Positions 6,750-29,002 of a DNA stretch of 64,000 nt are shown one piece after another. Position 1 is the stretch's first letter; each line of letters opens with the position of its first letter. The DNA is from Escherichia coli (GTDB taxonomy: Bacteria > Pseudomonadota > Gammaproteobacteria > Enterobacterales > Enterobacteriaceae): the NCBI RefSeq assembly GCF_050320075.1, contig NZ_CP190018.1, one strand, 5' to 3'. Below the pieces are notes generated by a model. The model saw only the letters and a list, made by a program, of their open reading frames with translations, had not been told where the DNA came from and searched no databases. The translations under genes and the position numbers were made by a program.

Positions 6750-7082
6750 ATGACGAGCAAAGAAACCTTTACCCATTACCAGCCGCTGGGCAACAGTGAC
6801 CCGGCTCATACCGCAACCGCGCCCGGCGGATTGAGTGCGAAAGCGCCTGCAATGACCCCGCTGATGCTGGACACCTCCACCCGTAAGCTGGTTGCGTGGG
6901 ATGGCACCACCGACGGTGCTGCCGTTGGCATTCTTGCAGTTGCTGCTGACCAGACCAGCACCACACTGACGTTCTACAAGTCCGGCACGTTCCGTTATGA
7001 GGATGTGCTCTGGCCGGAGGCTGCCAGCGACGAGACGAAAAAACGGACCGCGTTTGCCGGAACGGCAATCAGCATCGTTTAA
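6750..7082 (+). CDS. D: head decoration protein D
   Basis: 110 aa from second Met ([15 protein letters not shown]...), lambda gpD-like. Confidence 0.9.
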
Positions 7083-7229: not shown

Positions 7230-8801
7230 TTACTGAGAGCTCAGATCAACTTTCCAGGGCAACAGATCGCGTACCCGGTTTGCCGGCCAGTCCTGGATAT
7301 GTTCAATGACGTAACGCAGCCACTTTTCTGGCTCCACATTGTTCAGACGGCATGTGCCGATCAGCGAGTACAACACCGCCGCATGTTCACCACCGCTGTC
7401 GGAACCCGCGAACATCCAGTTTTTCCGGCCTACGGCCACTCCCCGTAAGGCGTTCTCTGCGATGTTGTTGTCGATTTCCACCCAGCCATTACTGCAGTAC
7501 ACGTTCAGTGCATCCCACTGTTTCAGCAGGTATGCGAACGCTTTTGCCGTATCTGAGTGACGCGACAGTGTTTTCATCTGTTGCTGTATCCAGTCATACA
7601 GTGACTGCATCAGTGGCGCGGCTCTGGCTTTTCTTGCCGCCAGACGCTGTTCTGCTGAACAGCCCCGGACCTCTGCCTCGATGGCATACAGTTCACCGAT
7701 ACGCTGCAGGGCTTCCGTGGTGATGTAGGTGGGCGCTCTTGCATGCACATCGTGGATTTTTCTCCGGGCATGAGCCATACACGCGGCTTCCGTTATTCTG
7801 CCGGATTCGTATAACGCCCGGTAACCACCGTAAGCATCGGCCTGAAGCACACCGCTGTAACCGGCCAGGTGATTTTGTGGATGGATACCTTTCCGGTCCG
7901 GACTGTACGCGAACCAGACCGCCGGGGGCATCTGTGAACCGGCGTTACGGTCATCACGGACGTAGACCCACAGCCGGGCTGTCCGGGTTTTACCGCTGCC
8001 CGGCTCCTGGACCGGGACGGGGATATCATCAGCATGGACTTTACCGGGCATCAGCACATACTGGCGCAGGACGTCATACAGCGGCTCCAGCAGTTCAGCA
8101 ACAGCACCTGTCCAGCGCCCCAGTGTGGCACGGCTCAGCTCCACTCCCTGACGACGGTATATTTCTGACTGGCGGTATAACGGCAGATGGTCTGCATATT
8201 TCCCGGTGACAACATGGGCCAGAAGCCCCGCTCCGGCATAACTGCGTGCAATGGGTTTTGAAGGTACTGGTGCCTGCACGATATGGTCGCACCGGCAACA
8301 GGCCTGTTTCGGACGTTGTGTTTCGATAACCTTAAAGGCGCTGCTGATAAGCTCCAGTTGCTCTGACACATCACATCCCAGAGAACTGAGTTCACCACCA
8401 CAGGCAGGACAGCATTCCTCTTCCGGCCGGATAACCCGGGTTTCACGGGGAAGTGAGGCCGGTAACGGTTTACGGGCTGAAGACTGGCGCAGGGCGGATG
8501 GCAGTACCGGGTCATATTGCTCACCCAGCGTTTCCGCCATTTCTTCCTGAAGTGCGCTGATTCGCTCCTGTGCTTCCTGTATCTGCCGTTCGGTTTTTGC
8601 ACGAAGTTTTTCTGAGCTTTTACCGAACTGCATACGTTGCAGTTTCGCAACCAGCGCCTTCAGCCGGTTGATTTCGGAAGCATAAGCCGCCACCCGCTGT
8701 GAGAGCAGGCGGTTGTATTCAGCCATCTGGCGGATGGTGTCCTGTTGCGTCTGCAACAGTGCCCGCAGGCGGGCGTTCTCATGAGCAAGTGAGGTGTCCA
8801 T
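7230..8801 (-). CDS. tnpC: IS66-family transposase (Orf3/TnpC)
   Basis: 523 aa; N-terminal coiled-coil/leucine-zipper region, CxxC...C zinc-finger-like motifs and IS66 transposase-like core. Confidence 0.85.
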
Positions 8802-8820
8802 ATCCTCACTTTACAACGGG

Positions 8821-9168
8821 TTATATGCGGATTCCAGCGCGTTCCGTTCGTTTCGGGTGCTTCCAGTTGATACCTTCAAGAAGCATGGATAACTGAGCCG
8901 GAGTAAGGTGCACCTTGCCGTCACGGGTGACTGGCCAGACGAAGCGGCCCCGCTCCAGGCGTTTGGTGAAGAGGCACAGTCCGTCACTGTCAGCCCACAA
9001 CACTTTTATCTGGTCACCCCGGCGTCCGCGGAAGATGAACAGGTGTCCGGAGAACGGGTCATCCTTCAGGACGTTCTGAACTTTTGATGCCAGGCCGTTA
9101 AAGCCATTTCGCATATCGGTGATACCTGCAACCAGCCAGATACGCGAACCTGCAGGGAGAGATATCAT
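8821..9168 (-). CDS. tnpB: IS66 Orf2 (TnpB) accessory protein
   Basis: 115 aa, typical IS66 orf2 sequence (…FIFRGRRGDQIKVLWADSDGLCLFTKRLE…); ATGA overlap with upstream orf. Confidence 0.8.
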   Translation of the reverse strand: MISLPAGSRIWLVAGITDMRNGFNGLASKVQNVLKDDPFSGHLFIFRGRRGDQIKVLWADSDGLCLFTKRLERGRFVWPVTRDGKVHLTPAQLSMLLEGINWKHPKRTERAGIRI

Positions 9169-9845
9169 CAGTGGCTGCTCCCTTTTATTTCGCGGATAAG
9201 TGTCTGTAATAACGCCGGCGTCAGTTTACCTTTAAGCCTGAGAGTTCCGGCCGGCAGAACCAGCTCACAACACAGACTGTCGGACGGTGTATTTATCTGC
9301 TCTGGTTCCTGTGCGGGGGCCGGGATTTTATTATCCGGCTCCGGCGTTAACGTCACGGGAAGCAGTGCCGGCATATTTTTTCCGGAAGGCAGCAGGCCAC
9401 CTTTCCGGTATTGATGGCGCCAGTTGAAGAGCAGGTTATCGTTGATTCCGTTTTCCCGGGCGATCTGCGCCACACAGGCTCCGGGCTGCAGTGACTGCTC
9501 CACTAAGGCGATTTTAAACTCATAAGGGAAGTTGGGCCGCCGGGGACGTTTTTTTACCACGGGGGCTTCGGATATAACGGTGCTTTCAGGACGTACGACT
9601 GGTACCGTGGAAAATTGTCCGTAAAGGCAGGCATCAAGTTCCTGCTCCGACATGCCTGCGGGCAAAGGCCACGAAAGGCCAGCTCTCCGAAAGCGCACGA
9701 ACATACTACAAACTGTTGATTTTGGTACACCCAGGCGACGCCCGGCCACAACCCGGGGTAAATGTTCTTCAAAGTGAAGACGTAAAGCTTCAGTGATCCA
9801 GGTCCGGTGTTTCATACGATAGTGTCCATTAAAAATGATGGACAT
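9168..9845 (-). CDS. tnpA: IS66 Orf1 (TnpA) accessory protein
   Basis: First ORF inside the element, 53 bp from the IS end, same strand as orf2/orf3; true start may be an internal Met. Confidence 0.65.
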   Translation of the reverse strand: MSIIFNGHYRMKHRTWITEALRLHFEEHLPRVVAGRRLGVPKSTVCSMFVRFRRAGLSWPLPAGMSEQELDACLYGQFSTVPVVRPESTVISEAPVVKKRPRRPNFPYEFKIALVEQSLQPGACVAQIARENGINDNLLFNWRHQYRKGGLLPSGKNMPALLPVTLTPEPDNKIPAPAQEPEQINTPSDSLCCELVLPAGTLRLKGKLTPALLQTLIREIKGSSH

Positions 9846-19183: not shown

Positions 19184-22100
19184 ATGGGTAAAGGCAGCAG
19201 TAAGGGGCATACCCCGCGCGAAGCGAAGGACAACCTGAAGTCCACGCAGCTGCTGAGTGTGATCGATGCCATCAGCGAAGGGCCGGTTGAAGGTCCGGTG
19301 GATGGATTAAAAAGCGTGCTGCTGAACAGTACGCCGGTGCTGGACAGTGAGGGGAATACCAATATATCCGGCGTCACGGTGGTGTTCCGGGCCGGTGAGC
19401 AGGAGCAGACTCCGCCGGAGGGATTTGAATCCTCCGGTTCCGAGACGGTGCTGGGTACGGAAGTGAAATATGACACGCCGATCACCCGCACCATCACGTC
19501 GGCAAACATCGACCGTCTGCGCTTTACCTTCGGTGTGCAGGCACTGGTGGAAACCACCTCAAAGGGGGACAGGAATCCATCGGAAGTCCGCCTGCTGGTT
19601 CAGATACAACGTAACGGTGGCTGGGTGACGGAAAAAGACATCACCATTAAGGGTAAAACCACCTCGCAGTATCTGGCCTCAGTGGTGGTGGATAACCTGC
19701 CGCCGCGCCCGTTTAATATCCGGATGCGCAGGATGACGCCGGACAGCACCACAGACCAGCTGCAGAACAAAACGCTCTGGTCGTCATACACCGAAATCAT
19801 CGATGTGAAACAGTGCTACCCGAACACGGCACTGGTCGGCGTGCAGGTGGACTCGGAGCAGTTCGGCAGCCAGCAGGTGAGCCGTAATTATCATCTGCGC
19901 GGGCGTATTCTGCAGGTGCCGTCGAACTATAACCCGCAGACGCGGCAATACAGCGGTATCTGGGACGGGACGTTTAAACCGGCATACAGCAACAACATGG
20001 CCTGGTGTCTGTGGGATATGCTGACCCATCCGCGCTACGGCATGGGGAAGCGTCTCGGTGCGGCGGATGTGGACAAATGGGCGCTGTATGTCATCGGCCA
20101 GAATTGCGACCAGTCGGTGCCGGATGGCTTTGGTGGCACGGAGCCGCGCATCACCTGTAATGCCTGGCTGACCACGCAGCGCAAGGCGTGGGATGTGCTC
20201 AGTGATTTCTGCTCGGCGATGCGCTGTATGCCGGTATGGAACGGGCAGACGCTGACGTTCGTGCAGGACCGGCCATCGGATAAGGTGTGGACCTATAACC
20301 GCAGTAATGTGGTGATGCCGGATGATGGCGCGCCGTTCCGCTACAGCTTCAGCGCCCTGAAGGACCGTCATAATGCCGTTGAGGTGAACTGGATTGACCC
20401 GAATAACGGCTGGGAGACGGCGACAGAGCTTGTGGAGGACACGCAGGCCATTGCCCGTTACGGTCGTAACGTTACGAAGATGGATGCCTTTGGCTGTACC
20501 AGCCGGGGGCAGGCACACCGCGCCGGGCTGTGGCTGATTAAAACAGAACTGCTGGAAACGCAGACCGTGGATTTCAGCGTCGGCGCAGAAGGGCTTCGCC
20601 ATGTACCGGGCGATGTTATTGAAATCTGTGATGATGACTATGCCGGTATCAGCACCGGTGGTCGTGTGCTGGCGGTGAACAGCCAGACCCGGACGCTGAC
20701 GCTCGACCGTGAAATCACGCTGCCATCCTCCGGTACCACGCTGATAAGCCTGGTTGACGGAAGTGGCAATCCGGTCAGCGTGGAGGTTCAGTCCGTCACC
20801 GACGGCGTGAAGGTAAAAGTGAGCCGTGTTCCTGACGGTGTTGCTGAATACAGCGTATGGGGGCTGAAGCTGCCGACGCTGCGCCAGCGACTGTTCCGCT
20901 GCGTGAGTATCCGTGAGAACGACGACGGCACGTATGCCATCACCGCCGTGCAGCATGTGCCGGAAAAAGAGGCCATCGTGGATAACGGGGCGCACTTTGA
21001 CGGCGAACAGAGTGGCACGGTGAATGGTGTCACGCCGCCAGCGGTGCAGCACCTGACCGCAGAAGTCACTGCAGACAGCGGGGAATATCAGGTGCTGGCG
21101 CGCTGGGATACGCCGAAGGTGGTGAAGGGTGTGAGCTTTATGCTTCGCCTGACCGTGGCAGCGGATGACGGCAGTGAGCGGCTGGTCAGCACGGCCCGGA
21201 CGACGGAAACCACATACCGCTTCAGGCAGCTGGCGCTGGGAAGCTACAGGCTGACAGTCCGGGCGGCAAATGCCTGGGGGCAGCAGGGCGATCCTGCATC
21301 GGTATCGTTCCGGATTGCCGCACCGGCAGCGCCGTCGCGGATTGAGCTGACGCCGGGCTATTTTCAGATAACCGCCACGCCCCATCTTGCCGTTTATGAT
21401 CCGACGGTACAGTTTGAGTTCTGGTTCTCGGAAAAGCGGATTGCGGATATCAGGCAGGTTGAAACTACAGCCCGCTATCTTGGCACGGCGCTGTACTGGA
21501 TAGCTGCCAGTATCAATATCAAACCGGGCCATGATTATTATTTTTACATCCGCAGTGTGAACACCGTTGGCAAATCGGCATTTGTGGAGGCTGTTGGCCA
21601 GCCGAGTGATGATGCATCCGGCTATCTGGATTTTTTCAAAGGCGAGATAGGGAAAAGCCATCTGGCTCAGGAGCTGTGGACGCAGATTGATAACGGTCAG
21701 CTTGCGCCTGACCTGGCTGAAATCAGGACGTCCATTACGGATGTCAGCAATGAAATCACGCAGACCGTCAATAAGAAACTGGAAGACCAGAGTGCGGCAA
21801 TTCAGCAGATACAGAAGGTTCAGGTTGATACAAATAATAACCTGAACAGCATGTGGGCTGTGAAGCTGCAGCAGATGCAGGACGGACGCCTTTATATCGC
21901 GGGTATTGGTGCCGGTATTGAGAACACCCCTGACGGCATGCAGAGTCAGGTGCTGCTGGCGGCGGACAGGATTGCGATGGTTAATCCTGCGAATGGCAAC
22001 ACAAAGCCGATGTTTGTTGGTCAGGGCGATCAGATATTCATGAACGAAGTGTTCCTGAAATATCTGACGGCTCCCACCATTACCAGCGGCGGTAATCCTC

Positions 22101-22663
22101 CGGCATTTTCCCTGACACCGGACGGGCGGCTGACGGCGAAAAATGCCGATATCAGCGGTAACGTGAATGCGAACTCCGGGACGCTCAACAACGTCACGAT
22201 TAACGAGAACTGCCGGGTTCTGGGAAAACTGTCCGCGAACCAGATTGAAGGCGATCTCGTTAAAACAGTGGGTAAAGCTTTCCCCCGGGACTCCCGTGCA
22301 CCGGAACGGTGGCCATCAGGGACCATTACCGTCAGGATTTATGACGATCAGCCGTTTGACCGACAGATTGTTATTCCGGCGGTGGCATTCAGCGGCGCTA
22401 AGCATGAGAGAGAGCATACTGATATTTACTCCTCATGCCGTCTGATAGTGCGGAAAAACGGTGCTGAAATTTATAACCGTACCGCGCTGGATAATACGCT
22501 GATTTACAGTGGCGTTATTGATATGCCTGCCGGTCACGGTCACATGACGCTGGAGTTTTCGGTGTCAGCATGGCTGGTAAATAACTGGTATCCCACAGCA
22601 AGTATCAGCGATTTGCTGGTTGTGGTGATGAAGAAAGCCACCGCAGGCATCAGTATCAGCTGA
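19184..22663 (+). CDS. J: central tail fibre / host specificity protein J
   Basis: 1159 aa, lambda gpJ-like order and N-terminal/central sequence. Confidence 0.9.
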
Positions 22664-22730: not shown

Positions 22731-23330
22731 ATGCGTAAATTATGTGCTGTTATTCTGTCCACAGTAGTCTGGCTGGTCGCCGCTGGTACGCCAGCGAGCG
22801 CAGCAGAGCATCAGTCCACACTAAGCGCCGGGTATCTTCAGACCCATACTGATATGCCCGGCAACGATGACCTGAAGGGCATTAACGTGAAATACCGTTA
22901 TGAATTTACGGACACGCTGGGGCTGGTGACGTCATTCAGTTATGCCAATGCCAAAGATGAGCAAAAAACGCATTACAGCGATACCCGCTGGCATGAAGAT
23001 TCAGTGCGTAACCGCTGGTTCAGCATGATGGCGGGGCCGTCTGTACGCGTGAATGAATGGTTCAGTGCTTATGCGATGGCAGGTGTGGCTTACAGCCGTG
23101 TTTCGACTTTTTCCGGGGATTATCTCCGCGTAACTGACAGCAAGGGGAAAACGCACGATGTGCTGACCGGAAGTGATGACGGTCGCCACAGCAACACGTC
23201 TCTGGCGTGGGGGGCTGGCGTGCAGTTTAACCCGACCGAATCCGTGGCCATTGATATTGCTTATGAAGGTTCCGGCAGTGGCGACTGGCGCACTGACGGT
23301 TTCATCGTGGGTGTCGGTTATAAATTCTGA
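22731..23330 (+). CDS. lom: Lom outer-membrane protein (Ail/Lom family)
   Basis: 199 aa with signal peptide, beta-barrel-type sequence ending ...GVGYKF; lambda lom position. Confidence 0.9.
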   Translation: MRKLCAVILSTVVWLVAAGTPASAAEHQSTLSAGYLQTHTDMPGNDDLKGINVKYRYEFTDTLGLVTSFSYANAKDEQKTHYSDTRWHEDSVRNRWFSMMAGPSVRVNEWFSAYAMAGVAYSRVSTFSGDYLRVTDSKGKTHDVLTGSDDGRHSNTSLAWGAGVQFNPTESVAIDIAYEGSGSGDWRTDGFIVGVGYKF

Positions 23331-23388: not shown

Positions 23389-25794
23389 GTGGATATGGCA
23401 GCAGTAAAAATCTCAGGTGTGCTGAAAGATGGTGCGGGAAAACCAATACAGAACTGCACTATTCAACTGAAGGCAAAGCGTAACAGCACCACGGTACTGG
23501 TGAACACGGTGGCCTCTGAAAATCCGGATGAAGCCGGGCGTTACAGCATGGATGTTGAGTATGGCCAGTACAGCGTCACCCTGCTGGTTGAAGGTTTTCC
23601 GCCTTCGCATGCCGGGAGCATTACCGTCTATGAAGGTTCCAGACCAGGTACGCTGAATGATTTTCTCGGTGCCATGACGGAAGAGGATGTCATGCCGGAG
23701 GCATTGCGCCGTTTTGAGGAAATGGTGGAAGAAGCGGCACGCAACGCCGAAGCCGCCTCTCAGAGCGCAGCGGCGGCAAAGAAATCCGAAACGGCTGCGG
23801 CATCATCGAAGAACGCGGCGAAAACCTCAGAAACGAATGCAGCTAATAGTGCACAGGCGGCAGCGACCTCAAAGACTGCATCGGCAAACTCCGCGACAGC
23901 AGCCAAAAAATCAGAAACCAACGCGAAAAATAGCGAGACAGCCGCAAAGACGAGCGAAACCAACGCAAAGTCCAGCCAGACGGCAGCGAAAACCAGCGAA
24001 ACGAATGCCAAAGCCAGTGAAACTGCGGCAAAAAACAGCCAGGTTGCAGCAGCCCAAAGCGAGAGCGCGGCAGCCGGTTCTGCGACTTCAGCAGCTGGAT
24101 CAGCAACTGCTGCGGCTAACAGCCAGAAAGCTGCGAAGACGAGTGAAACTAACGCAAAGTCCAGCCAGACGGCAGCGAAGACCAGCGAAACGAATGCCAA
24201 AGCCAGCGAAACTGCGGCGAAAAACAGCCAGGTTGCAGCAGCCCAAAGCGAGAGCGCGGCAGCTGGTTCTGCAAGCGCGGCGGCTGCTTCTGCCACTGCA
24301 TCAGCCAACAGTCAAAAAGCGGCAAAAACCAGTGAAACCAATGCAAAGACAAGCGAGACTGCAGCGGCGAACTCGGCGAAAGCATCGGCAGCAAGCCAGA
24401 CAGCAGCTAAAGCAAGTGAAGACGCAGCCAGAGAGTATGCAAGTCAGGCAGCAGAGCCGTATAAATATGTCTTACAGCCACTGCCTGATGTGTGGATACC
24501 GTTTAACGATTCACTGGATATGATTACGGGCTTTTCGCCGTCATATAAAAAAATTGTTATTGGTGATGATGAAATAACGATGCCTGGCGACAAGGTTGTT
24601 AAGTTTAAACGCGCATCAACTGCCACATATATCAATAAATCAGGCGTATTTAGTGTTGCTAAAATTGATGAGCCACGATTTGAAAAAGAAGGTTTATTGA
24701 TTGAAGGACAGCGCACTAACTATTTTGTTAAATCCAATACTCCCGCTGAATGGACGAGTACCAGCAATATCGATAAAACTAATAATGGTGTTGATGAATT
24801 TGGTTTTTCATATGCCAAAATGCGAACAAAAGATAATATGACAGGACAATCATCTGCACTTAGTCTGCATACATGCAGTGCATCCCGGGGGATTGATGTT
24901 AGTGGCGATAATAAGTATTGCACTGTTTCATGCAGGGTTAAAGCTCCTGATGGTCTTCGTTGTCGTTTGCGTTTTGAAAAATACGATGGGTCGGTTTATA
25001 CATTTTTAGGAGATGCTTATTTAACTTTCGGAACTCTGATAATAGAAAAAACTGGCGGAGCAGCCAATAGAATAGCAGCTACTGCAACTAAAGATCCGGT
25101 TACAGGGTGGATTTTCTATGAGGCAACTATAGAAGCTGTTGAAGGTGAAGCCTTAATTGGCGCAATGATTCAGTATGCGCCGAAAAAAGGTGGTATAACT
25201 GAAGCGGGAGATTATATTTACCTTGCAACACCACAATTTGAAAACGGCGGATGTGCTTCATCTTTTGTTATTACGACAACTGCACCCGCAACCCGCTCCA
25301 GTGATATGGTGACGATCCCAACTGAAAATAATATCTATAATAGACCGCTTACGTGTCTTGTCGAGGTCAATAGAAATTGGGGCGATATTCCTCCTAATGT
25401 AGCACCGCGTATTTTTGATTTTTCTGGTGTGCCACCTATTGAGTCAATTACATACGCTTTTAACACAACTGAGAAATATTACGGTCAGCTTTATATACAA
25501 ACTTATAAAGCGTTGACAAGTACTTACGTTTCTAGTGTGTTTGCTGGTCGAACTGATGTTCGAAAATTCATTGGTGGTTTTAATATTTATTCTGATGGTA
25601 CTAAACGAGTAGTTTCTAACGGTGAGGCTACTAAAACTATGAAAACGGAGTGGACGGGCGTAAAAACACGGACCTTTATTCGAATTGGAGGTCAAGCCAC
25701 ATCGGGAACTCGTCATCTATTCGGCCATTTGAGAAATCTTCGTCTCTGGCATAAAGAATTAACTGATGCGCAAATGGGGGAGAGTATTAAATGA
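23389..25794 (+). CDS. stf: side tail fibre protein (Stf-like), chimeric: lambda-like N-terminus, repeat shaft, AT-rich divergent C-terminal domain
   Basis: 801 aa; N-terminal ~100 aa match lambda Stf as recalled (MAVKISGVLKDG...); internal Ala/Ser/Thr/Lys repeats; composition shifts to AT-rich from about nt 24480. Confidence 0.85.
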   Translation: MDMAAVKISGVLKDGAGKPIQNCTIQLKAKRNSTTVLVNTVASENPDEAGRYSMDVEYGQYSVTLLVEGFPPSHAGSITVYEGSRPGTLNDFLGAMTEEDVMPEALRRFEEMVEEAARNAEAASQSAAAAKKSETAAASSKNAAKTSETNAANSAQAAATSKTASANSATAAKKSETNAKNSETAAKTSETNAKSSQTAAKTSETNAKASETAAKNSQVAAAQSESAAAGSATSAAGSATAAANSQKAAKTSETNAKSSQTAAKTSETNAKASETAAKNSQVAAAQSESAAAGSASAAAASATASANSQKAAKTSETNAKTSETAAANSAKASAASQTAAKASEDAAREYASQAAEPYKYVLQPLPDVWIPFNDSLDMITGFSPSYKKIVIGDDEITMPGDKVVKFKRASTATYINKSGVFSVAKIDEPRFEKEGLLIEGQRTNYFVKSNTPAEWTSTSNIDKTNNGVDEFGFSYAKMRTKDNMTGQSSALSLHTCSASRGIDVSGDNKYCTVSCRVKAPDGLRCRLRFEKYDGSVYTFLGDAYLTFGTLIIEKTGGAANRIAATATKDPVTGWIFYEATIEAVEGEALIGAMIQYAPKKGGITEAGDYIYLATPQFENGGCASSFVITTTAPATRSSDMVTIPTENNIYNRPLTCLVEVNRNWGDIPPNVAPRIFDFSGVPPIESITYAFNTTEKYYGQLYIQTYKALTSTYVSSVFAGRTDVRKFIGGFNIYSDGTKRVVSNGEATKTMKTEWTGVKTRTFIRIGGQATSGTRHLFGHLRNLRLWHKELTDAQMGESIK
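23945..24322 (+). repeat. two tandem ~189-bp (63-codon) near-identical repeats inside the stf shaft
   Basis: aacgcaaagtccagccagacggcagcgaa... recurs at 23962 and 24151; embedded in a longer array of shorter AAKTSETNAK-type units. Confidence 0.75.
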
Positions 25795-26072
25795 AAGATT
25801 TAACACTCAAATTTGCAGACAGGGCCGACTTTTCGGCCTTTATGGAGAGCATTGGCTATTATGATGACGAGTCGATGCAGGATGATATTCTTATTGACGT
25901 GATAGGTAATGTGTACAAAGAAACCGGAGAACTGACTGAAGATGGCGAACCGGTATGTGTTAAGGAAGACGGATATTTTGTAAACGTGCGCATCATTAAT
26001 GATTCGCAAATATCGTCAATATTCGATGAATACGTGGTTGCTGTTGAGCATCAACTTCGTGGCTGGATGTGA
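25791..26072 (+). CDS. acidic 93-aa hypothetical protein, translationally coupled to stf
   Basis: ATG overlaps stf stop (ATGA); AT-rich; no family recognised. Confidence 0.55.
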   Translation: MKDLTLKFADRADFSAFMESIGYYDDESMQDDILIDVIGNVYKETGELTEDGEPVCVKEDGYFVNVRIINDSQISSIFDEYVVAVEHQLRGWM

Positions 26073-26081
26073 GGAAGAAAA

Positions 26082-27122
26082 ATGGCTACATCGACAGTAA
26101 TTCCTGATGACATCAAAACGCTAAAATCCGACGTTAGCAAATTAAAAAACGATCAAGGAAGCTACGCAACAAAATTATATGTAGACAGCAAAGATGAAAT
26201 CGTTGGTGACTGGTCTGTTTCATGGTATCAGCAGGTATTGCCAACTAGCGGAGCTATATTTGGGAGAAAACTCCGCTCAACTCACAGGACGGCAGGTGTT
26301 GAGGATGCGTATTGCGAACTATACCTCAAAAAATGGATAGACAGTCCAGGTAACGCAATGGCGCGCCTTAACCTGAACGATAACGGGACAAACATTTGCT
26401 GGGACTTTACCAACCTTTATGGCGGTACGATGATTTTTCCCGGTGACAGCGGATACCTCAAAATGGGTAACTGCCTTATGTCATACAGCAAGCGTGGAAG
26501 TAACGCGCTTATTAAATTTGATTACACCGACACATTACAGATCAAATATGCCAATCATGGGTCAACCATGACATTAAACACACAGGGAACCGCTTATGCT
26601 GGTGTTACTGCTCAATTGTGGGGCAACTCCAGCCGTCCTGTTGTTTATGAAGTCGGTGTTGATGGTGGCGCTTATATGTTCTATGCGCAGAAAAATACCG
26701 ATAACACCTATATGTTAAGCGTTAATGGTGCATGTCATGCCACCGCATTTAACCAGCATTCCGACCGGGATCTGAAAGACAACATTCAGGTGATCGATAA
26801 TGCAACCGACCGCATCCGTAAAATGAACGGCTATACATACACGCTTAAAGAAAACGGTATGCCCTATGCTGGTGTCATTGCACAGGAAGCTCTGGAAGCA
26901 ATCCCAGAAGTTGTAGGTTCCGCAATGAAATATCAGGACGGTGCGAGCGGATCGGAAGGTGAAGAAGGTGAACGTTATTACACAGTAGATTATTCTGGTG
27001 TTACTGGCTTGCTTGTTCAGGTAGCCAGAGAGTCAGACGACAGAATAACAGCACTGGAAGAAGAAAACGCAGAATTAAGACAAAGATTATCTGCAATTGA
27101 TGCGGCGCTTGCGTCTAAATAA
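26082..27122 (+). CDS. tail-fibre-like protein with C-terminal intramolecular chaperone/self-cleaving domain (peptidase S74-like)
   Basis: 346 aa; good SD GAGGAAG before ATG; C-terminal ...NQHSDRDLKDNIQVIDNATDRIRKMNGYTYTLKENGMPYAGVIAQEALEAIPEVV... followed by a coiled-coil tail resembles the autoproteolytic chaperone domain of endosialidase/T5 L-shaped fibre proteins. Confidence 0.65.
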   Translation: MATSTVIPDDIKTLKSDVSKLKNDQGSYATKLYVDSKDEIVGDWSVSWYQQVLPTSGAIFGRKLRSTHRTAGVEDAYCELYLKKWIDSPGNAMARLNLNDNGTNICWDFTNLYGGTMIFPGDSGYLKMGNCLMSYSKRGSNALIKFDYTDTLQIKYANHGSTMTLNTQGTAYAGVTAQLWGNSSRPVVYEVGVDGGAYMFYAQKNTDNTYMLSVNGACHATAFNQHSDRDLKDNIQVIDNATDRIRKMNGYTYTLKENGMPYAGVIAQEALEAIPEVVGSAMKYQDGASGSEGEEGERYYTVDYSGVTGLLVQVARESDDRITALEEENAELRQRLSAIDAALASK

Positions 27123-27158
27123 TATTAAGGGGCCGAGCGCCCCGTTTTATTGGGTAGG

Positions 27159-27458
27159 ATGAAAATGGATATAACACCTTTCCTTCATGCGCTTTGTGCT
27201 GTGGCTGCGCAGCTACTGATTGGTCTTTTTACCGGGAACTGGGCTTACGGGGCGATAGCCGGTTGTACGTTCTTCATTGCGCGTGAACACACCCAGGCAG
27301 AATATCGCTGGATCGAAATGTTCGGGCATGGCAAGCGAATGAATATGCCGTGGTGGGGCGGTTTTGATCCACGCGCGTGGGATGTGGCAAGCCTGATGGA
27401 TTTTGCTGTGCCGGTGGTGGCGTGTCTGCTGGTCTGGCTGTTGGTTAATCGTGGGTGA
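27159..27458 (+). CDS. small hydrophobic membrane protein (2-3 predicted TM helices), function unknown
   Basis: Track ORF begins with TTG at 27150; ATG at 27159/27165 more plausible; hydrophobic stretches [16 protein letters not shown] and [15 protein letters not shown]. Confidence 0.5.
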
Positions 27459-27608
27459 AAAAAGGTGGGCTGTATATGCAACGGAGGAAGAAACCACGTT
27501 GCTGGAAGCCTGGAAGAAGTATCGGGTGTTGCTGAACCGTGTTAATACAACAACTGCACCGGATATTGAATGGCCAACAGTACCCATTATCGAATAGTGC
27601 ATTACGAA

Positions 27609-27670: not shown

Positions 27671-29002
27671 TTATTTTGAGTGAATTATCACCTTGTTTTT
27701 TCCGGTTCTTTTGGCTTGATATAACGCTTTGTCGGCATTGACTAACATTTCAGATGGACTGAGATTATTCTCTTTTGAAGCAAAGCAACCAATACTGACA
27801 GTTATTTTCTCAGGTCCATGCGATAATAATTTTTCCGAGCATTGCTCTTCAATGTTTTTTCTGATTCGCTCTGCAATTGATAGCAAGAGTTTTTGAGTAT
27901 TACCTTTAATGATAATACCGAACTCCTCACCGCCTAAGCGCCCTAATATATCCTCTTTCCTGATGGATTTTTTTATTATTCTGGTAACCATTACTATGAC
28001 TTGATCACCCATATGATGCCCCCATTTGTCATTGATGCTTTTGAAACTGTCAATATCTAACATTATTACTGAGAAATCATGGTGTTTTGATATATTCTTC
28101 AATGAGTCAATAAAGTATCTTCTATTGTATGTATTCGTTAGTGGATCATGAATTGCCATATGATTAGCATGATTTAATTTCCTGAAAACATAATACATGA
28201 GTGTTGAAATGATATAAATCATTGATATCAATTCAAGAAATTTTGTCATGTACCATGCAGGATGGGATTTATCAATAAAATACAATAAAATTAGATTATT
28301 GCATACTGACACTATACTAATAAGTATTATACACAACCATATTTTTGAGTAATTACGTATGCTGATGCATGAGCTGATAAGTAATACAAGCCAAAATACT
28401 GATATTATTTTGGTGTACACGATATTCCACGTCGACAAATGACGATTCAGCGAGTATTGTATAATATTAAGACTATATTTTATATGGTCACTGCTTAGAT
28501 TTTTTGCTACAAACGGAGTAATAAAAAGAATTAATATTGACAAAACAACAATTATTATGTTTCTTTTATCTTCTAAAATACTTTTATTTTTAACATTGGT
28601 GGAATAAACAGCCAGAAAGATTATAGATATAAAGCTGAACTGACGGAATAGATAATATATTGCGATATCATTTGATTTCTGATAGATTGTAGATAAATCG
28701 TTACCTAACGGAGATAAAGAAATAATAGCCACTTCTAATAAATAATACGTGTTGCTCAAAAACGCGAATGAAAGAATTAAGAGATAACTTTGTCTCTGAT
28801 TAGAAACATAGTAAAGCAATAGAAAAATAAAAATCATCAGGTTTATGAAAAAAAGCCCAATAATGAAAACACTATAACTTATTTGTGTTGTTTGTGTTAT
28901 GTATATTCCATTATTTTCATGCAGTAACAAAAATATAATAGAGATGCATGAAAATAAAAAGATGAAGATTTTTATTTTTATAGGTACCTGGTTGATAATC
29001 AT
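27671..29002 (-). CDS. membrane-anchored GGDEF-domain diguanylate cyclase (N-terminal polytopic membrane domain of unrecognised type)
   Basis: 443 aa; SD AGGTG 6 nt upstream; C-terminal GGDEF motifs incl. RKEDILGRLGGEEF (I-site RxxD + GGEEF); about 8 hydrophobic helices N-terminal; extremely AT-rich. Confidence 0.85.
   Translation of the reverse strand: MIINQVPIKIKIFIFLFSCISIIFLLLHENNGIYITQTTQISYSVFIIGLFFINLMIFIFLLLYYVSNQRQSYLLILSFAFLSNTYYLLEVAIISLSPLGNDLSTIYQKSNDIAIYYLFRQFSFISIIFLAVYSTNVKNKSILEDKRNIIIVVLSILILFITPFVAKNLSSDHIKYSLNIIQYSLNRHLSTWNIVYTKIISVFWLVLLISSCISIRNYSKIWLCIILISIVSVCNNLILLYFIDKSHPAWYMTKFLELISMIYIISTLMYYVFRKLNHANHMAIHDPLTNTYNRRYFIDSLKNISKHHDFSVIMLDIDSFKSINDKWGHHMGDQVIVMVTRIIKKSIRKEDILGRLGGEEFGIIIKGNTQKLLLSIAERIRKNIEEQCSEKLLSHGPEKITVSIGCFASKENNLSPSEMLVNADKALYQAKRTGKNKVIIHSK

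Follow-up and report, generated by a model that had tools for sequence, protein, structure and literature searches.

The side tail fiber gene stf of a prophage in Escherichia coli contig NZ_CP190018.1 (assembly GCF_050320075.1) very probably carries an in-frame tandem duplication, at 23941-24318, of a nine-heptad (63-residue) module in the proximal rod of a lambda-type side tail fiber, Stf. Positions refer to the 64,000-nt stretch of this contig that was analyzed (the window). An earlier reading of the nucleotide letters and translated open reading frames (ORFs), here called the sequence-only reading, had reported a tandem 189-bp repeat at this place. That repeat was confirmed by Tandem Repeats Finder (TRF; period 189, 2.3 copies, 23932-24366, 85% matches, 0 indels, score 632) and by a repeat search of the region, which returned two 189-nt copies at a spacing of 189 and no inverted repeats. 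The two blocks originally delimited, 23945-24133 and 24134-24322, are identical at 165 of 189 nucleotides (87.3%). Because the surrounding array is itself repetitive, its other in-phase lags (multiples of 21 nt) were used as the control; the best 189-nt windows at those lags reach only 48-61% identity, and the binomial probability of 165/189 against a 52% background is P = 5.5e-25. At least two head-to-tail copies therefore stand well above background (165/189 vs. at most 61%).

The original block start at 23945 is in the right place but one nucleotide off codon phase; in heptad register the first copy starts at 23941, and the boundaries are 23941, 24130, and 24319 (Table 1). The description of the copies as near-identical holds for the first 48 codons, the module “head,” in which 135 of 144 nucleotides agree (94%) and all nine differences are synonymous, but fails for the last 15 codons, the “tail,” with 30 of 45 nucleotides in agreement (67%) and four amino-acid changes. 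Taken together, the copies differ at 24 nucleotide sites (16 synonymous vs. four non-synonymous codon differences), encode 59 identical residues out of 63, and have a longest common exact run of 44 nt. The motif AAKTSETNAK opens each module as well as the partial third copy.

Both copies lie within an array of 35 consecutive xAxxSxx heptads that keeps a single register over 245 residues, from residue 108 of the GTG-start protein. Position 2 is Ala in 31 of the 35 heptads, position 5 is Ser in 32, and position 1 is Ala or Asn in 32. The Fourier spectrum of Ser positions peaks at 7, 3.5, and 2.33 residues, TRF also reports periods of 21 and 42 nt, and the spacings of the short-repeat families are all multiples of 21. 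The 10-residue unit of the sequence-only reading is thus replaced by a basic unit of seven residues (21 nt) with a 14-residue (42-nt) super-period. Because the unit is seven residues long, 189 bp corresponds to exactly nine heptads. As expected of a coiled coil, the array repeats every seven residues, and its conserved core positions alternate at spacings of 3 and 4.

Table 1. Positions of stf, its parts, alternative-frame ORFs, and neighboring genes in the window.
Feature	Position	Strand	Evidence and remarks
stf, side tail fiber gene	23395..25794	+	799 aa from ATG 23395; in-frame GTG at 23389; ORF, and RefSeq coding sequence at the same coordinates in NZ_CP123240
N-terminal collar (StfN) domain, attaches fiber to tail	23395..23676	+	phmmer to 9e7m/9mgh; Foldseek
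Ala/Ser heptad array	23710..24444	+	heptad listing, position composition, AlphaFold2 helicity; lambda orf-401 in same register
Module copy 1	23941..24129	+	9 heptads, AAKTSET...AAANSQK; tail type 1, AAAGSAT SAAGSAT AAANSQK
Module copy 2	24130..24318	+	9 heptads; tail type 2, AAAGSAS AAAASAT ASANSQK
Partial third copy, start only	24319..24366	+	AAKTSET NAKTSET AA...; TRF 2.3 copies, heptad listing, short-repeat families D1 and D3
C-terminal beta-rich region, aa ~440-799	24712..25791	+	predicted LamG/concanavalin-like lectin folds; presumed receptor-binding part
278-aa ORF	23687..24523	+ (+1 frame)	non-coding by-product; +1 frame without stops
182-aa antisense ORF	23760..24308	-	by-product; third-position bias in stf frame
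Two smaller antisense ORFs (87 and 81 aa)	23843-24106, 24149-24394	-	
J	19184-22663		1,159-aa J-like protein
lom	22731-23330		Ail_Lom, E=3.5e-126
Second fiber gene	26082-27122		346 aa; Peptidase_S74 intramolecular-chaperone domain, E=4.8e-14
Head-decoration gene	6750-7082		
IS66-family element	7230-9845		three minus-strand ORFs (523, 115, and 225 aa)
Major capsid gene	9909 (annotated start)		
Diguanylate-cyclase gene	27671-29002	-	443-aa ORF

The assignment of the repeat to the shaft of a lambda-type stf, also made by the sequence-only reading, is well supported. Pfam family PF08400 (phage_tail_N, which describes the N terminus of prophage tail fibers) matches residues 5-134 (E=4.1e-66), and phmmer aligns residues 3-95 with the 94-residue “Tail fiber protein” chain in the Ur-lambda tail-tip structure PDB 9E7M/9MGH (E=3.1e-48), with 9e7m also the top Foldseek match at 86% identity. 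The gene order J, lom, stf is identical to that of lambda, and the Ala/Ser heptad shaft directly follows the N-terminal domain, with the same pattern in lambda orf-401. The gp37-like tip and adjacent Tfa chaperone that characterize lambda Stf in the strict sense are absent, their places being taken by a C-terminal half that resembles LamG/CBM40 lectin folds and a 120-bp tfa remnant. The protein falls within the broad Stf family, its distal module having been swapped, and is not an end-to-end ortholog of lambda Stf. Over 35.7 kb, the window differs from E. coli YZLc1-3 (NZ_CP123240) by seven mismatches and one 1-nt indel; that genome has stf annotated within a lambda-like prophage adjoining zinT.

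Copy number does differ among relatives, as had been suggested. A protein search with Stf residues 1-430 recovered 3,198 proteins at E<=1e-30, and array length was measured between fixed anchors in the best 120 clusters (90% identity). Sixty-one clusters have 26 heptads (one module) and 48 have 35 heptads (two modules), two of the latter with a divergent first module. The remainder have 28 (three clusters), 31 (one), 33 (two), or 34 heptads (one), or are singletons out of heptad phase (four clusters, at -4, -5, -12, and -30 residues), which leaves 116 of 120 in phase. None of the 120 clusters contains a three-module allele. Every one of the 61 one-module clusters has tail type 2, and tail type 1 occurs in this census only as the copy-1 tail of two-module alleles; tails are copy-specific in all but the two of 48 two-module clusters with a divergent first module. 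Codon 35 of each module (24043-24045 and 24232-24234) lies in AAKNSQV in both modules of the window allele. Most two-module clusters instead combine V in copy 1 with D in copy 2, at 20 clusters against four with V in both. The V/V state could come from a short copy-1-to-copy-2 gene-conversion tract or from a single A-to-T change (GAT to GTT), which are indistinguishable here.

Among sequenced phages, PhiR49_1, 2G7b, and PhiR47_1 have two modules, the second being one heptad shorter in PhiR47_1, and IdasGreatGrand lacks exactly 63 residues. Both copies fall in a 1,296-bp stretch that two other complete E. coli genomes share at 100% identity, with identities of 97.8-99.9% in the 58 genomes that come next among the matches listed; the span is exactly 1,296 bp in 59 of the top 60 complete-genome matches and 1,294 bp in the other, H79. 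Of 5,426 complete E. coli genomes searched by BLAST, 1,006 contain the 95-nt junction of copy-1 tail and copy-2 head; a corresponding 95-nt tail-2 query was confounded by cross-matches joined into single places, so that only the tail-1 genome count is usable. Because so many genomes as well as isolated phages carry it, the duplication is a common, stable allele and not an assembly error.

Two one-module alleles were compared with the window at the DNA level, L008 (protein P0047) and L010 (P0051). Both are flanked by sequence 97-98% identical in nucleotides to that of the window, and as whole proteins they are 98-99% identical. Scored at the 24 diagnostic sites as copy-1 or copy-2 states, the single module reads 1111211 2221 2222... 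in L008 and 111111 2222...12 in L010, copy-1 states filling the first 4-6 diagnostic sites before giving way to copy-2 states at about nt 80-134. The single module of IdasGreatGrand has the same polarity, with copy-1 states toward its 5′ end and copy-2 states toward its 3′ end, and in P0047 the switch falls in the 44-nt exact run. A chimeric single module of this kind is what one unequal crossover between the two heads would be expected to produce. We infer that unequal homologous recombination or replication slippage, between the heads or between AAKTSETNAK repeats, would generate in-phase length variants that include the one-module allele. A duplication-junction signature, in which the first bases of copy 2 would derive from the AAKTSETNAK motif after the array, was unsupported, with one of four diagnostic sites in agreement.

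A fast-switching contingency locus that gives mixed fiber lengths within a lysogen population could also be read from the direct repeats, whose 144-nt heads are 94% identical, from the occurrence of one- and two-copy alleles on flanks 97-98% identical, and from rare intermediate lengths. We consider this very unlikely, given the 16 synonymous differences and an exact run of at most 44 nt, tails that are nearly always copy-specific, only two common length classes with no third copy in the cluster set, and top 60 complete-genome matches without length variation apart from the 2-bp difference in H79. Because the copies differ at 16 synonymous codons, change in copy number is slow and the dimorphism is old and fairly stable. 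Of the proposal that such repeats permit changes in fiber length by recombination, the recombinational origin is supported by the chimeric modules, whereas ready expansion and contraction is not supported, given the synonymous differences, the copy-specific tails, and the lack of a three-copy allele among these clusters.

The array also marks a boundary at which modules are exchanged. For several phages, similarity ends at query position 897 (window 24285), inside the tail of copy 2, and for others at query position 1296, about 240 bp past the array. In PhiR47_1 the array runs in register into a different distal sequence.

To relate the heptads to structure, we combined prediction with published homologs. 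A full-length AlphaFold2 (AF2) monomer, modeled from 36 sequences, has a helical shaft at residues 100-226 and 237-352 with a fold-back at 227-236 (predicted local distance difference test, pLDDT, ~40-67; predicted template modeling score 0.34); this low-confidence hairpin was used as evidence of helical propensity only. A search of PDB sequences returned no solved shaft structure, only the 94-residue collar and a weak local match to an unmodeled part of DpK2. In Ur-lambda, cryo-electron microscopy (cryo-EM), cryo-electron tomography (cryo-ET), and AlphaFold3 describe gpStf as a trimer in which a collar (residues 1-91) and a linker (92-101) precede a “proximal coiled-coil domain” (102-393; Yu 2025, Sci Adv, PMC12617516). 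The Ala/Ser-rich PCoil in the PfN-PCoil fragment of an O157 prophage fiber is alpha-helical and trimeric by circular dichroism and size-exclusion chromatography with multi-angle laser light scattering (Ghosh 2012, PLoS One 7:e37872, PMC3368898). PCoil heptads follow a loose Ala-x-x-Ala/Ser-x-x-Ser pattern, and PCoil lengths differ by multiples of seven (PMC3368898). The array described here has the same 3-3-1 spacing of small positions (position 2 Ala, position 5 Ser, position 1 Ala/Asn). By analogy, the shaft would be a coiled coil that is alpha-helical and trimeric, its trimeric state being taken from the published homologs.

The standard rise of a coiled coil is ~0.148 nm per residue, with which the 16 nm given by Ghosh for about 110 residues agrees. 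At this rise the 245-residue array would measure ~36 nm and the extra module ~9.3 nm (63 x 0.148 nm). In the arrangement that we propose, Stf would trimerize, its N-terminal domain (about residues 1-94) would form the collar that holds the fiber on the tail, a role described for the Ur-lambda domain (PMC12617516), and the C-terminal lectin-like region would bind the host surface. With a whole number of heptads duplicated, the coiled coil between the two domains would stay continuous while the rod became longer by the length of one module. We infer that this may in turn affect adsorption.

Heptad phase would not matter if the Ala/Ser array were instead a disordered spacer or one with beta structure. 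Slightly less probable still than fast switching in our judgment, this reading draws on the near absence of large hydrophobic residues, the low AF2 confidence, and the lack of a Pfam model. Against it stand a strict seven-residue register over 245 residues, phase kept in 116 of 120 alleles, an AF2 model that is helical throughout, and published findings: the helical, trimeric PCoil (PMC3368898), the coiled-coil model of Ur-lambda based on cryo-EM and cryo-ET (PMC12617516), and the triple-helical bundle density of DpK2 (PMC8552709).

Several points nevertheless weigh against a duplicated coiled-coil module. The oligomeric state of the shaft is taken from homologs, and its helicity from homologs and an AF2 monomer of low confidence (pLDDT about 40-67, with the fold-back at 227-236), and no Pfam model covers the shaft, the scan of Stf having given PF08400 and a sub-threshold CarboxypepD_reg match only. 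The four out-of-phase singletons mean that the phase rule is not absolute, unless they are sequencing errors. As to origin, the one-module form could be ancestral, with the head of copy 2 and the tail of copy 1 diverging later; when the tail differences are counted as one event, the head sites alone give P ~0.06, and the direction of change is unproven.

The closest described counterpart is the PCoil of EPclA (Ghosh 2012, PMC3368898), which likewise follows a PF08400 (PfN) domain, is Ala/Ser-rich with 3-3-1 small residues, and has almost no Leu or Ile. Compared by the description of EPclA and not by sequence alignment, its PCoil has about 110 residues (~16 nm) and is followed by a collagen triple helix and a PfC domain, whereas the array in the window has 245 residues, a nine-heptad tandem duplication, and a lectin-like C-terminal region after it. 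Lambda orf-401, which covers the N-terminal half of lambda's frameshifted stf, shows 60% identity across the first 285 residues (E=5e-85) and has the xAxxSxx pattern in the same register from about residue 104; its array is more degenerate, with ~40 heptads and without the 63-residue tandem duplication. Distally, lambda Stf has a hinge and a gp37-like domain that binds OmpC and requires Tfa, in contrast to the different C-terminal half found here. The lambda reference was NC_001416; the record “Lambda_2E9” was rejected as lambda, being a Jouyvirus with a different 673-aa fiber.

A weaker likeness (E ~1e-3) is to a short AAKxSExNAK heptad stretch in DpK2 of Klebsiella phage RAD2 (PDB 7LZJ; PMC8552709), lying in the N-terminal part, which appeared as an extended triple-helical bundle not modeled at atomic level. 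Unlike Stf, DpK2 is a tailspike with a beta-helix enzyme domain, and its heptad stretch is short. Whole-heptad blocks gained or lost by recombination also change rod length while keeping the fold in T4 fibritin, trimeric autotransporter adhesins, and streptococcal M proteins, although these stalks are unrelated in sequence and mostly have hydrophobic cores.

The distal half of Stf (residues ~440-799) is not of the lambda/T4 gp37 type but is predicted to form beta-sandwich, lectin-like (jelly-roll) domains. AF2 pLDDT is 70-94 over most of residues 440-620, laminin LG4-5, neurexin LNS, sialidase CBM40, and folds of pentraxin type are among the Foldseek matches, and one homolog (P0101) carries a precomputed match to Pfam PF13385. 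These predictions point to a carbohydrate receptor instead of OmpC.

That the two copies are an artifact of assembly, whether a false expansion or the collapsed remnant of a longer array, has next to no chance of being correct: it could appeal to homologs that end as partial proteins at contig ends and to the related stf 5′ regions (median 2, up to 14 per genome) that could confuse short-read assembly, but the two-copy stretch recurs in identical or near-identical form in the top 60 complete-genome matches, with the span unchanged apart from the 2 bp in H79, the junction recurs in 1,006 of them, the independently sequenced PhiR49_1, 2G7b, and PhiR47_1 have it, 24 differing sites make the copies readily distinguishable, and the best 120 clusters hold no three-copy protein. 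The concern over collapse implied by the sequence-only reading is not supported. Many close homologs are annotated as partial proteins of 470-630 aa that end at contig edges shortly after the shaft, and complete E. coli genomes have a median of 2, and up to 14, places that match the 5′ half of stf. Because this half is common to several prophages, it probably breaks short-read assemblies at stf; shaft repeats together with multiple related prophages per genome are the likely reason that many such assemblies end in this gene.

The sequence-only reading had also expected the repeats to generate spurious ORFs in every frame on both strands. Their status as by-products is upheld, but the claim of every frame is not. 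Between 23740 and 24450 there are no stops in the +1 frame, 10 in the +2 frame, and 7, 3, and 4 in the minus frames, and the antisense ORFs of 182, 87, and 81 aa occupy two of the three minus frames. Long open frames arise because the shaft is built from a GCN/AAR/AGY/ACN-rich codon set. In comparison with four relatives, the third position of stf codons takes 69 of the 101 shaft substitutions. Because of this, and because all nine head differences are synonymous in its frame, stf is the selected frame; together with the 16 synonymous against four non-synonymous codon differences between the copies, this points to purifying selection.

A real overlapping gene served by the repeat, either the 278-aa +1 ORF or the 182-aa antisense ORF, would fit a +1 frame that is stop-free over 837 nt and the antisense orf206b annotated in the same region of the lambda record, but its probability is negligible, as the synonymous head differences alter the +1 peptide at several positions and leave the +1 peptides of the two copies visibly different, substitutions concentrate at the third position of stf codons, the codon set accounts for the open frames, and RefSeq annotates no such gene in the near-identical genome. 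In lambda NC_001416 (L013), orf206b is annotated at 1248-1868 on the minus strand, antisense to the Ala/Ser shaft of orf-401; it is a composition-driven frame of the same kind as the 182-aa antisense ORF and probably a long-standing spurious annotation.

Heptad-phased length polymorphism of PCoil shafts is already known in kind, having been described in 2012, and the exact sequence is in RefSeq, with close relatives in isolated phages. The general understanding of tail fibers is unchanged, and the importance of the duplication is mainly practical. For annotation, the codon usage of the shaft leaves long open frames that can be mistaken for genes (cf. lambda orf206b). For engineering, it is within the heptad array that natural stf alleles switch partners and that whole-heptad indels are tolerated, which offers guidance for chimeric or length-adjusted fibers in lambda-based delivery vectors; the Nature 2024 vector paper gives no detail on stf fusion points within the shaft. 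One- and two-module fibers, which would be ~9 nm apart, are a clean natural pair for testing the effect of length on adsorption. The 26- and 35-heptad alleles occur in roughly equal numbers of clusters, sometimes on nearly identical flanks. It is conceivable, though we think it rather improbable, that the dimorphism is a maintained length polymorphism that tunes fiber reach through capsule or O-antigen of differing thickness; if so, unequal recombination between module heads would act as a slow switch between two lengths.

Downstream of stf (25791-27597), a conserved 93-aa ORF overlaps the stf stop, followed by a second fiber gene (Table 1). In several relatives (PhiR49_1, L008-L011) the product of this gene has 234 aa and in 2G7b about 345 aa, so that its length also varies. 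A 97-aa ORF and then the tfa remnant lie 3′ of this gene, with no intact tfa downstream.

Two further features concern the prophage as a whole. An IS66-family element lies between the head-decoration gene and the major capsid gene, and its ORFs correspond, in the annotation of the near-identical genome, to ISCro1 transposase, TnpB, and TnpA. The insertion may have severed the capsid gene from its upstream operon or truncated it, and the prophage may therefore be unable to form particles. At the prophage end, the diguanylate-cyclase gene is intact in the window and annotated as frameshifted in YZLc1-3; the sole difference, at ~27834, is a single T within a T5/T4 run, which reads AATAATTTTTCC in the window and AATAATTTTCC in YZLc1-3.

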